Virus record (IMG/VR): IMGVR_UViG_2698536476_000008
Direction: 5' to 3' (one strand)
DNA length: 64,000 bases
Origin: a virus
Lineage: Duplodnaviria; Heunggongvirae; Uroviricota; Caudoviricetes
Made by a program: the position numbers and the translations under genes. Position 1 is the first letter of the stretch. Each line of letters starts with the position of its first letter. A model generated the notes under the pieces. It saw only the letters and a program-made list of their open reading frames with translations. It searched no databases and was not told the origin of the DNA. Shown piece after piece: positions 14,951 through 17,476 of this stretch.

Positions 14951-15580
14951 ATGAACATACCACCCAGGGCGACTAGGACTGTTTTTTGTGTCGGTAGCGG
15001 TCCGTCACTCACTCGTGAGGACTGTGCTGCTATAGAAAAAACTGGCTGTTCAATCATCGCGGTTAACAATTCCTGGCAGATGTTCGATGACATTTATGCC
15101 TTATACGCCGGTGATTTGTCATGGTGGAAGCAATACGGATCCACCATACCGGGAGGGAGATTCCGCAAAGTGACAGCCAACCTGGCGGCGGCGAAATCAT
15201 TTTCGTTGGAGTACAGGCGATATTGTGGACCGGCGGAAGGGGTAAATAGCGGCGCGCAGGCTATCAGTCTGGCTGCTGAATCAGGGGCTGAAGTAGTGGT
15301 ATTAGTCGGCTATGACTGTTCTCTGCAAAACGGCCTTCATTGGCATGGCGCGCACCCTCAAGCACTACGGAATCCAACGCAGGTGTCTATTTCAAAATGG
15401 CAACAGCAGTTCCTGGATACCCGCAAAAAACACGCAGATTTACATATTTTGAATGCAAGTAGGAGCAGTGCAATTCAATGTTTCCCAAGAATAAATTTAG
15501 AGGCAGTGATCGCGTTATTATCGTCGGCAGTGGCCCAAGCGCCGCAAACTTTGTTGCGCCGCGCGGAGTGCCGATTATAG
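14951..15580 (+). CDS. Rossmann-like protein with GSGPS motif (MptE/Maf DUF115-like), paralog 1; start uncertain (14918 or 14951)
   Basis: CVGSGPSL...IIAVNN...VLVGYD shared with the next ORF. Confidence 0.4.
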   Translation: MNIPPRATRTVFCVGSGPSLTREDCAAIEKTGCSIIAVNNSWQMFDDIYALYAGDLSWWKQYGSTIPGGRFRKVTANLAAAKSFSLEYRRYCGPAEGVNSGAQAISLAAESGAEVVVLVGYDCSLQNGLHWHGAHPQALRNPTQVSISKWQQQFLDTRKKHADLHILNASRSSAIQCFPRINLEAVIALLSSAVAQAPQTLLRRAECRL

Positions 15581-16104
15581 CGGTCAATGGGGCCATCGAC
15601 TGGCTTAACCGCGCTTCTTATTTTTTCACCCTTGATCCATCCCCAGACAATATGCGGCGCGTTGGTCGTGGCCGCCGTCGCCGTGGTGTTTGTTATTGCA
15701 TGGCACTACCCGATGTTAAAGAACGTGAAGTCAGAGATGGCGTTCTGTGCTTCCGTCGTGTGGCTGAACGCGGCATGGAGCCAAAAAATACGAATTCTCC
15801 CGAGTGGTGGGCGTGGCGCTGGTCCGCACATTTCGGCCTTTGCGAAGATGAGAATGAAATTGCCAGCGGCAATAGTGCATATGGTGCTCTGAACCTGGCT
15901 TTCCATATCGGATTCAAACATGTAGCTCTGGTGGGCGTTGACGCTACGCAAGAACTACGCGTTCACTCCGGCGGCACGCCAAAAAATCTAAGTCACCTGC
16001 CTTTGTTATTCCAGTCTGCGCGTGAACAGATTGACGTTGTTTCATGCGGGAAAATGGGAGGTATTCCGCAGATGACTCTTAAAGAATGGCTGAAGAATAC
16101 ATGA
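15478..16104 (+). CDS. Rossmann-like protein with GSGPS motif, paralog 2
   Basis: IIVGSGPS...IIAVNG...ALVGVD; overlaps paralog 1 by about 100 nt in a different frame. Confidence 0.45.
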
Positions 16105-16778
16105 TGGCACCCACAATTTATCACCGTATCGACGGTACCAAATACAGGAATGTCTGGGTTGTTGGTGATCTGCATGGTTGCTACACCAGACTGATGTCCG
16201 AACTCCATCGTGTGGATTTTGACCCGGCGCAGGATTTACTGATATCGGTCGGCGACCTTATCGATCGCGGTACTGAAAATGTCGAATGTCTGGAACTATT
16301 GCAGATGCCCTGGTTCAGGGCAGTGATGGGGAACCATGAGCGGCTGATGATTGATGCGTTAAGTCCAGATGGCAACGTGAATAACTGGCTAATGAATGGC
16401 GGACAATGGTTCTTCATGCTGGACACTGATCAGGAAATATTAGCCTGGGCGCTGGTGGAGCTGGTAAAGCGTCTGCCCTATATCATTGAGTTGAACACGG
16501 GGCAAGAAACTATCGTTATAGCCCATGCCGACTATCCGGATAATGAATACCAATTCGGTAAGGAGGTGCCGCTTTTCAACGTTGTCTGGGCGCGCGAGCG
16601 TATCAGTGATTCGATGGATGATATTGGTGGCGAAATTTCGGGCGCAGATCGTTTTATCTTTGGTCACACTCCGGTGAAAAGCCCGAAGACATTCTGGAAT
16701 CAGCAGTATATCGACACTGGTGCCGTATTTTGCGGAAACCTGACATTGATGAAAGTGAAAGGTGATGGTGCAGCATGA
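16086..16778 (+). CDS. ppp: Ser/Thr protein phosphatase, calcineurin-like metallophosphoesterase
   Basis: GDLHG, GDLIDRG, GNHE motifs. Confidence 0.8.
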
Positions 16779-17476
16779 AGATTGCTTTAGTTTTTCGCTC
16801 TGGTGGTGACTATAACGCTTCCGATGTGCAGTGGCTGGTTAATCAACTGCCAAAAGACTATGAAATTATTTGCCTGACAGACCTGAAGTGTTTACATGTA
16901 CCTGGCGTCAAAGTTATCCCATTGATCAACCAGTGGCAAAAGTGCCGTGGCTGGTGGGCGAAAATCGAGTTGTTCCGACCGGATATAACCGATGATCTGT
17001 TCTATCTGGATTTGGACACGGTTATTGCCGGTGATATACGCCCAATCCTAGAGCATCCACCAACCAGCTTCACCATGCTTAGGGATTTTTACCATCCACA
17101 ATATCGTGGCAGCGGTGCCCTGTGGATACCAAATAGTGTTAAAGCGCATATCTGGAGTTCATTCTGGCAAGATCCGGAAGGTTGGATTTCTCGTTGTGTC
17201 ACTACTGAGTGCTGGGGTGACCAGGGGTTCTTACGAAAGGTTATGGGCGATGATACACCAGCATTTCAGGATCTGTATCCAGGATGGTTTGTAAGTTACA
17301 AGGCCGATGTTGTGGAACCTGGTTCAAAATATGCGAGCGCGCGTTACTCCAGGGGGAATGGGGCATTACCAAAAGACTGCCGAATAATCTTTTTCCACGG
17401 CAAACCGCGACCTCGCGAAGTGTCAGAGGATTGGCTTCCCCTTATCAGCTCATTTTTTGAGCGAGAATCAGAATAA
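16775..17476 (+). CDS. Putative GT-A-like glycosyltransferase (DLD motif in [12 protein letters not shown])
   Basis: 233-aa ORF coupled to ppp stop. Confidence 0.4.

Follow-up and report, generated by a model that had tools for sequence, protein, structure and literature searches.

Phages and their bacterial hosts offer several described glycosylation systems with which a new phage locus can be compared. Mycobacteriophage glycosyltransferases, some of them accompanied by methyltransferases, reportedly decorate capsid and tail proteins and are said to be dispensable for growth. Natural capsid glycosylation in these phages is documented (Freeman et al., 2023, cited in PMC12691614). In bacteria, the flagellin glycosyltransferase Maf is a three-domain protein of about 630 amino acids (aa) whose central domain (structure 5mu5) belongs to the Pfam family PF01973, and a PF01973 Maf enzyme expressed in Escherichia coli O-glycosylates protein Ser/Thr residues from cytidine monophosphate-activated 3-deoxy-D-manno-oct-2-ulosonic acid (CMP-Kdo), adding 220 Da (PMC11339370). 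The GT42 enzymes CstI and CstII of Campylobacter jejuni, of which CstII acts on lipooligosaccharide, the KdoIII transferase WaaZ (TIGR04437/PF27901; GT73), a chromosomally encoded protein of 283 aa acting on lipid A-core, and the GT8 hexosyltransferases complete the set that matters here. The present analysis concerns the locus pmgO-pmgP-ppp-pmgQ at positions 14,951 to 17,476 of a 64,000-nucleotide (nt) stretch of tailed-phage DNA (IMG/VR record IMGVR_UViG_2698536476_000008; the whole stretch is called the window below). Three of its genes, pmgO, pmgP and pmgQ, are members of a widespread, putative phage glycosylation cassette, for which we propose a concrete mechanism.

The identity of the locus was already established, although the initial annotation of the window did not recognise it as one annotated in the classic phage P1. 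Positions 14700-17600 match P1 (NC_005856) over their full length at 99.5% DNA identity, and P7 at 98%; the four plus-strand open reading frames (ORFs) are P1 pmgO, pmgP, ppp and pmgQ base for base (hdmB, hdmC, ppp and hdmD in P7), and the P1 RefSeq annotation was carried over with an offset of +9699, which all four fit exactly (Table 1). RefSeq labels their products 'alpha-2,3-sialyltransferase', 'norphogenetic protein', 'metallophosphoesterase' and 'glycosyltransferase', and the original P1 notes on the pmg genes say 'putative morphogenetic function' and nothing further; this label, like 'head morphogenesis' in P7, reflects map position only. Our literature search on pmgO, pmgP and pmgQ returned no work on their function, the P1-relevant items being an essentiality table, transcriptomics and the description of a P1-like phage.

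PmgO and PmgP carry the signature by which the initial annotation had paired two adjacent proteins of about 210 aa, (V/I)VGSGPS...IIAVN...LVG(Y/V)D, in the forms CVGSGPS, IIAVN and LVGYD (PmgO) and IVGSGPS, IIAVN and LVGVD (PmgP). Pairwise BLASTP relates them weakly (E 0.003, over 36 residues around GSGPS...IIAVN), and comparison of profiles from family alignments built through homologue searches (33 PmgO relatives, 39 PmgP relatives) joins them over 161 columns with a probability of 98% and E 2e-13: they are genuine, old and distant paralogues. Each family has its own set of conserved residues. In PmgO, G28, P29, S30, S111, G112 and D133 are invariant and a GYDCS...HWHGxH segment, including H141 and H143, is specifically conserved; the conserved core spans residues 20-205, the final 15 or so forming a variable, non-conserved tail. 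Since the family is not conserved before about residue 20, the annotated pmgO start and a second in-frame ATG, the one from which the initial annotation set out, are both possible initiation sites. In PmgP, G19, P20 and S21 are at least 90% conserved, the invariant set (N37, D53, N132-S133, D155, H173) differs from that of PmgO, and there are an insertion of about 35 aa and a conserved GVDA...NLSHLP segment. A dN/dS comparison of P1 with a P1-like element of Pantoea gave no ratio, synonymous sites being saturated.

The resemblance to MptE/Maf-type (DUF115) enzymes, also proposed initially, stands at the level of fold and motif and falls short of the Pfam family threshold. AlphaFold models of both proteins are confident (mean pLDDT 87.4 for PmgO, 93.7 for PmgP), and their common top fold matches are Maf, the archaeal kinase MptE (8sd5) and the sialyltransferase CstI, with Maf the best structural match of each. 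Both families show the PF01973 pattern of an N-terminal beta-strand followed by a GxGPS nucleotide-binding loop, then NS(G/A) and GxD. Against PF01973 (MptE-like/DUF115, Maf_flag10) the scores are 23.4 bits for PmgO (E 5.7e-5) and 20.9 bits for PmgP (E 3.4e-4), below the gathering score of 34.6 and over the C-terminal third of the model only; at E<1 the family is matched by 32 of the 33 PmgO relatives (best 3e-8) and by all 39 PmgP relatives (best 9e-7). The PmgO profile also meets CstII in two motif segments (GxGPSL and NSG...GYD), a weak match at E 0.2-0.6, and these segments we take to line the CMP-sugar site of CstII. The PmgP profile found no match in the PDB, single-protein sequence searches of the PDB were uninformative, and a structure search of BFVD returned phage relatives that are unnamed or called 'MptE-like' only.

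Set beside the named systems, PmgO and PmgP are distinct from each. They share the Maf fold at 16-18% sequence identity, but they are bare catalytic-type domains of 200 aa occurring as a paralogous pair, and no flagellin accompanies the P1 cassette. Unlike CstII, they lack the lid of about 30 residues between GID and the catalytic His188; the PmgO HWHGxH histidines and PmgP H173 are conserved, but their spacing differs from that of His188, so that they are candidate equivalents only. The PmgO and PmgP profiles match WaaZ in the SGP(T)S, IIAVNG and A..IA..L....I..G.D segments, an O-P fusion protein described below faintly matches PF27901, and the CMP-Kdo donor of WaaZ is available in every host; the WaaZ equivalog cut-off of 200 bits is nonetheless far off (PmgP 11.9 bits, E 0.1; PmgO no match), the family hidden Markov models (HMMs) scoring K-12 WaaZ at 12-14 bits. 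The mycobacteriophage systems resemble the P1-type cassette in being non-essential and in having accessory methyltransferases, but differ in enzyme families and hosts (Actinobacteria), and glycosylation of a protein by the P1-type cassette is putative.

PmgQ bears out the initial suggestion of a GT-A-like glycosyltransferase with a DLD motif. That motif (D79-L80-D81, a DxD metal/nucleotide-sugar motif) is invariant in the family; the profile of 27 relatives matches the GT8 enzyme 6mw5, the glycogenin-like Gat1, at E 6.9e-7 (positions 52-210, 159 positions) and the Streptococcus GT8 enzyme 5gvv at E 0.005, aligning DLDT with their DADA/DSDL, and among 14 E. coli K-12 Waa proteins it matches WaaJ and WaaO, lipopolysaccharide (LPS) enzymes both belonging to GT8. 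The motif HxxGxxKPW is typical of GT8, and the C-terminal FHGxPRP segment of PmgQ resembles it. Judged from its sequence, PmgQ is a divergent GT8-like transferase of GT-A fold, which differs from typical GT8 enzymes in being shorter (233 aa) and in having no match to the GT8 family PF01501; 7 of the 27 relatives give sub-threshold PF01501 matches (best E 0.026). The trio is maintained in nature: among the 80 P1-like contigs compared (L006-L085), pmgO and pmgP are intact in all and pmgQ in 75; in four pmgQ is interrupted, which suggests weaker or conditional selection on this gene, or assembly errors.

The unit that is conserved is PmgO+PmgP+PmgQ, not the four-gene modification module initially proposed. 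The trio occurs together, without Ppp, in more than 15 distinct lineages of unrelated lambdoid, HK97-like and jumbo phages and prophages, and all identified hosts are Gram-negative. A first scan of IMG/VR viral contigs yielded near-identical P1 copies only, the diversity coming from genome contigs, contigs encoding homologues and a phage collection. The carriers include phiNP of Citrobacter rodentium and related prophages, an E. coli prophage, an Alloalcanivorax prophage, E. coli phage EP_H11, HK97-like prophages of Pseudomonas and Gilvimarinus and the virulent Xanthomonas jumbo phage XacN1, while a Serratia locus adjoins lysozyme and holin genes, and genomes of Zhongshania, Methylophilaceae, Microbulbifer, Brevundimonas and Sinomicrobium carry O, P and Q homologues. 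A search of 1.84 billion representatives (50% clustering) gave 2,133 PmgO/PmgP relatives at E<=1e-3; there are an in-frame O-P fusion of 376 aa followed by Q (P0051) and, among the best 150 matches, P-Q fusions (P0228, P0316) and O-O tandems. These fusions indicate that PmgO, PmgP and PmgQ work together.

Ppp is, as the initial annotation had it, a calcineurin-like phosphatase: it scores 59.3 bits against Metallophos (PF00149; cut-off 21.5) and matches PHROG 246 'NinI-like' (E 5e-113) and PRK11439 (E 3e-81), in which it is akin to lambda NinI and E. coli PrpA-PrpB, and the P1 record gives 64% identity to the lambda phosphatase. With 272 bits it stays below the equivalog cut-off of NF008516 (326) and is therefore a relative, not an equivalog, of that E. 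coli phosphatase. What distinguishes it from NinI and PrpA-PrpB is its seat within an operon of glycosyltransferase genes, found in P1-like phages alone, with no evident functional link to the cassette. It is absent from all other cassettes examined, and phage D6 has ppp and no match to pmgP, so Ppp is an insertion specific to P1-like phages, unrelated to the conserved cassette and outside it; this comparative context rules out a four-gene module.

Some homologues occur in other arrangements. In phage D3 the PmgO homologue is one continuous ORF (L109 4408-5055, HMM positions 5-181) annotated as two genes, orf6.5 in a different frame and a shortened orf7, a split that is probably a mis-annotation. 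A second cassette variant combines a PmgO-like gene with a protein of about 280 aa and a Methyltransf_23 enzyme, at D3 orf12-orf13 (L109 6394-7789), PAJU2 ORF011-012 (L113 4525-5917) and in Klebsiella phage Eowyn (L110 5577-7071); in D3-like phages its site is within the head-tail gene block, and it occurs also in a jumbo Klebsiella phage. Its 280-aa protein (D3 orf12 and the Eowyn homologue) has a faint likeness to GT9 heptosyltransferases (E 0.069), which is a lead only. In Serratia plymuthica two proteins with Big_1 domains are encoded after a PmgO homologue (L004 10616-12442). A PmgP homologue and the 217-aa ORF behind it (L112 9001-10298) form an orphan pair in a chromosomal, apparently non-prophage setting among sugar-metabolism and regulator genes.

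The genes that join the trio are of carbohydrate type. In XacN1 a TylF-type sugar O-methyltransferase is fused to Q (35.2 bits, cut-off 23); EP_H11 adds a GT4-like protein, and other cassettes add a PF03407-like GT-A protein (L005), an S-adenosylmethionine-dependent methyltransferase (L105) or a Sulfotransfer_2 enzyme (the Gilvimarinus prophage). A 193-aa ORF of the Pseudomonas prophage resembles the PF03407-like protein by eye and has no Pfam match, and annotated GT-A and GT9 genes adjoin the PmgO homologue of Caulobacter phage CcrColossus. Fold alone does not decide between a transferase and a kinase for PmgO and PmgP; this company argues for glycosyltransferases rather than MptE-like kinases. 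To our knowledge, all characterised glycosyltransferases of the fold (Maf, GT42, GT29, WaaZ) use CMP-activated ulosonic acids, and in E. coli K-12 we know of no such donor other than CMP-Kdo. No sugar-nucleotide synthesis genes lie within the cassettes of the phages examined, and since the hosts are Gram-negative, the donors would be host precursors of the LPS core. From the relatives of the fold, the absence of synthesis genes and the K-12 supply, we infer that the donors are probably CMP-Kdo for PmgO/PmgP and a uridine diphosphate (UDP)-hexose, UDP-Glc or UDP-Gal, for PmgQ.

On these grounds pmgO, pmgP and pmgQ may be pictured as a three-enzyme glycan-building cassette active in lytic growth. 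PmgO and PmgP would transfer a 2-keto-3-deoxy ulosonic acid from a CMP-donor, as characterised enzymes of the fold do, probably acting as a pair and possibly as a heterodimer, their genes being coupled through their overlap; PmgQ would add a hexose from a UDP-sugar. The acceptor would be Ser/Thr residues exposed on the capsid and/or tail proteins of the phage's own virion, and the outcome a small glycan coat dispensable for plaque formation in the laboratory.

The overlap of pmgO and pmgP in different frames, put initially at about 100 nt and flagged for a frameshift check, measures 103 nt and is real. It stands in the reference annotation of P1 and is identical, with both ORFs intact, in all 80 independent P1-like IMG/VR contigs; the homology-supported parts of the two proteins overlap by 46 nt (15478-15523), and the first ten or so residues of PmgP are modelled with low confidence. 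Elsewhere the O-P junction overlaps by 94 nt (lambdoid prophages of Citrobacter and E. coli), 49, 40, 37, 13, 11, 7 or 4 nt, the overlaps of 94, 49, 40 and 37 nt occurring in relatives of only 40-70% protein identity. Because lengths run from 4 to 103 nt across lineages, the ancestral state, as reconstructed from these comparisons, is an ordinary tight junction that was lengthened in enterobacterial phages, and we read the overlap as translational coupling of the two genes. It is very improbable that the overlap conceals a single gene, whether through a sequencing frameshift or through a programmed -1 frameshift yielding a functional PmgO-PmgP fusion. The -1 phase of pmgP would suit the latter, as would two X_XXY_YYZ heptamers in the pmgO frame within the overlap (T_TTC_CCA, 15481-15487; A_AAT_TTA, 15493-15499), which have the canonical form of slippery sites and lead into the pmgP frame, and the natural fusion P0051. 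Yet identity in 80 of 80 contigs, together with the tight junction kept in distant relatives, rules out a sequencing error, and a programmed site is ruled out by an AGGAG (15461-15465) ahead of the pmgP ATG, by the conservation of PmgP Met-1, by overlaps of just 4-13 nt in other lineages and by the lack of conservation of the heptamers in L003, L106 and L089. Such a heptamer arises by chance in about 13% of 34-codon stretches by our estimate, and the in-frame fusion is rare (1 of 149 representatives).

As to what the cassette modifies, virion proteins are the likeliest acceptor in our analysis, a choice we make tentatively. Its genomic sites point that way. The cassettes of the Pseudomonas (L104) and Gilvimarinus (L111) prophages, which are unrelated HK97-like elements, and the PmgO homologue of phage D3 lie directly 3' of the major capsid gene; in virulent CcrColossus the locus stands between tail and lysis genes; in virulent XacN1 it stands first in a run of large ORFs ending in a tail-sheath protein; and in four prophages, phiNP and its relatives among the carriers of this arrangement, it lies between lysis cassette and terminase. 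Lysis-terminase and structural-block sites are late-transcribed positions, and P1 itself has the late promoter LPpmgL upstream of the cassette. The PmgO homologue of PAJU2 is annotated 'structural protein', and a PmgO-like domain is fused to Big_1/Big_13 immunoglobulin (Ig)-like domains in P0236 (556 aa). XacN1 virions contain two proteins positive in periodic-acid-Schiff staining (PMC5852040). The Kdo-transferring Maf enzyme introduced above is a chemical precedent for such a modification, and the glycosylated capsids of mycobacteriophages are a natural one. A dispensable coat is consistent with the genetics of P1: knock-down of pmgO, pmgP, ppp or pmgQ by CRISPR interference (CRISPRi) left plating unchanged (PMC10695390), and of the 29 mutants in a knockout library 24 form normal plaques and show normal antirestriction, pmgO, pmgP and pmgQ being outside the five pmg knockouts that abolish infectious virions (PMC9024508). 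A broader proposal, that the trio forms the centre of a widespread pathway through which phages of Gram-negative bacteria O-glycosylate their own virions with host LPS-core sugar nucleotides (CMP-Kdo, UDP-hexose and in some ADP-heptose), a PmgO/PmgP heteromer balanced by the overlapping genes being the initiating enzyme, seems to us possible if rather doubtful.

Several observations weigh against virion glycosylation by these enzymes. Their glycosyltransferase activity is putative, being assigned from sequence and modelled structure; the Maf/MptE fold also includes pyrophosphokinases (MptE, thiamine pyrophosphokinase) and so does not prove transferase chemistry; the PF01973 gathering score is not reached by PmgO or PmgP, and P1 PmgQ matches no Pfam family, nor does PmgQ reach the PF01501 gathering score. 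XacN1 has two other annotated glycosyltransferases able to explain its glycoproteins, capsid types among the carriers are unrelated, which makes a single protein acceptor less than obvious, and the literature searched contains no report of glycosylated P1 virions. The P1 operon, moreover, has an early promoter under C1 control. The proteome of P1 virions (PMC9024508) did not include PmgO, PmgP or PmgQ, which counts for little because an enzyme need not be packaged. The other adverse points favour a different acceptor, nascent lipid A-core at the cytoplasmic face of the inner membrane. PmgO and PmgP would then add Kdo like WaaZ and PmgQ a hexose like WaaJ/WaaO, capping or truncating the core and masking the phage's own receptor, to the benefit of superinfection exclusion or of progeny spared adsorption to cell debris. 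The nearest host relatives of the trio are indeed LPS-core enzymes: among the 14 K-12 Waa proteins the PmgO and PmgP profiles match WaaZ only, and there are faint WaaZ_KDO_III matches. All identified hosts have LPS. With calculated isoelectric points of 9.3 and 9.5, PmgO and PmgP (unlike the acidic PmgQ) are basic in the manner of membrane-associated Waa enzymes, although this proxy for membrane or LPS association does not discriminate. Over-expression of WaaZ reportedly truncates the outer core (Frirdich et al., 2003), a site between lysis genes and terminase is the classic accessory 'moron' position, and the receptor of P1 is a glucose of the LPS core. That of the trio carrier phiNP is the outer-core GlcII (PMC6456863). 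Against LPS stand the modest size of the Waa matches (just 12-15 bits in a 14-sequence database), the repression of the P1 operon by C1 in lysogens, and the position of several cassettes inside the capsid/neck/tail block or in virulent jumbo phages, where late expression leaves little time for LPS replacement and, in the virulent carriers, there is no lysogeny through which a host could be converted. A displayed glycan accounts better than LPS for the O-methyl and sulfate tailoring and for the fusion to Ig domains, and the trio is conserved across Enterobacteria, Caulobacterales, Xanthomonas and Bacteroidota, whose LPS cores differ greatly. The literature search found no paper linking WaaZ, prophage and Kdo. 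LPS remodelling ranks second, and we consider it unlikely though not negligible; virion proteins are placed above it because late expression and virulent carriers fit masking of outer-membrane LPS poorly.

Two further accounts depart from glycan assembly. PmgO and PmgP might be kinases of the MptE/thiamine-pyrophosphokinase kind that pyrophosphorylate a small molecule, with Ppp and Pap in the same pathway, as the MptE name of the sole Pfam family they match and the two phosphatase genes in or near the P1 operon would allow. We regard this as improbable, since the top structural match of both proteins is a glycosyltransferase, their motifs align with the CMP-sugar site of CstII, O and P consistently occur with a GT8-like transferase, at times as parts of one fusion protein, and in the company of other glycosyltransferases and sugar-tailoring enzymes, and Ppp is missing outside P1-like genomes. 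Least probable of all the readings is modification of phage DNA or nucleotides, which the initial annotation had offered alongside a glycan. On its side are the existence of DNA-modifying phage glycosyltransferases, for instance in T4, the basic nature of PmgO and PmgP, and the VRR-NUC nuclease gene pmgM upstream. Against it, the cassette has neither a hydroxymethylated-base gene nor one for any other DNA-modification function, ordinary restriction enzymes routinely cut P1 DNA, the enzyme families are known for glycans, lipooligosaccharides and proteins, not DNA, and the tailoring enzymes are of carbohydrate type. Of the substrates first suggested, DNA and nucleotides thus find no support and glycan assembly is favoured by the accessory enzymes. 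Membership of a defence system was likewise considered and rejected, PADLOC models giving no significant match (best E 0.02-0.03, to unrelated models).

The operon that houses the putative glycosylation cassette in P1 is summarised in Table 1. From pmgN to pmgQ its five ORFs are chained by overlaps of 59 (or 26), 103, 19 and 4 nt, the last an ATGA shared by the ppp stop and the pmgQ start; such a chain is the mark of a single operon with translational coupling. It is repressed by C1 in the lysogen; at the operator Oppp the window reads aaattaattagtgcatg, 13 of whose 17 positions agree with what we take to be the C1 operator consensus. The next C1 operator and promoter, directly after pmgQ, mark the end of the cassette operon, and P1 annotation places a late promoter, LPpmgL, farther upstream, ahead of pmgL. 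A consensus scan of the region for promoters and terminators found nothing exceeding shuffled expectation and did not recover PpmgN.

Table 1. Features of the pmgN-pmgQ operon in window coordinates
Feature	Position	Strand	Remarks
PpmgN, predicted sigma-70 promoter of the operon	14722..14748	+	P1 RefSeq annotation (L001 5023-5049)
Oppp (former Op83), C1 repressor operator	14761..14777	-	P1 annotation; Op(hdm) in P7 annotation
pmgN, small ORF opening the operon, overlaps pmgO start	14821..14976	+	51 aa from GTG 14821; 62 aa from 14788
pmgO, putative CMP-ulosonic-acid glycosyltransferase, Maf/MptE/GT42 fold	14918..15580	+	220 aa; annotated start 14918, second in-frame ATG 14951
pmgO/pmgP dual-coding overlap	15478..15580	+	103 nt; pmgO aa 187-220 and pmgP aa 1-34; pmgP in -1 phase
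pmgP, pmgO paralogue of the same fold	15478..16104	+	208 aa
ppp, lambda NinI/PrpA-type Ser/Thr metallophosphatase	16086..16778	+	230 aa; between pmgP and pmgQ
pmgQ, putative retaining hexosyltransferase, GT8-like GT-A fold, DxD	16775..17476	+	233 aa
OpmgRa, C1 operator, with promoter PpmgR of the next transcription unit	17478..17494	+	P1 annotation (L001 7779-7795)

PmgN belongs to PHROG 2350, which has no assigned function, and has no Pfam match and no recognisable family. In the CRISPRi screen pmgN (14788-14976) scored as essential, with an efficiency of plating of 1.4e-2, and the downstream pmgO, pmgP, ppp and pmgQ did not; a table in the same paper lists it as non-essential in an earlier knockout study (PMC10695390). 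The effect may be one on the promoter or operator, or a real role of the small ORF. Two operon neighbours have domains of nucleic-acid type: PmgM (14176-14754), with a sub-threshold VRR-NUC nuclease match (21.3 bits, cut-off 23.8), and Pap (19113-19619), which matches the PNKP HAD phosphatase domain PF25109 (44 bits, cut-off 27.6) and is not a classical acid phosphatase. Farther along the window, positions 40001-42000 have a GC content of 0.40 against about 0.49 elsewhere and may have been acquired horizontally.

Few phages have been studied as thoroughly as P1, and for three of its genes the placeholder label 'pmg' can now give way to an assignment, still putative, to glycan assembly. If the acceptor is the virion, surface glycosylation of phages would extend from mycobacteriophages to the phages of Gram-negative bacteria, which would matter for how the immune system recognises therapeutic phages and for tools based on transduction; and if the pathway of virion O-glycosylation outlined above holds, it would be the first natural glycosylation of protein with Kdo and the first virion glycosylation system in coliphage P1. 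Should LPS be the acceptor instead, the cassette would represent a new, cytoplasmic route of receptor masking.

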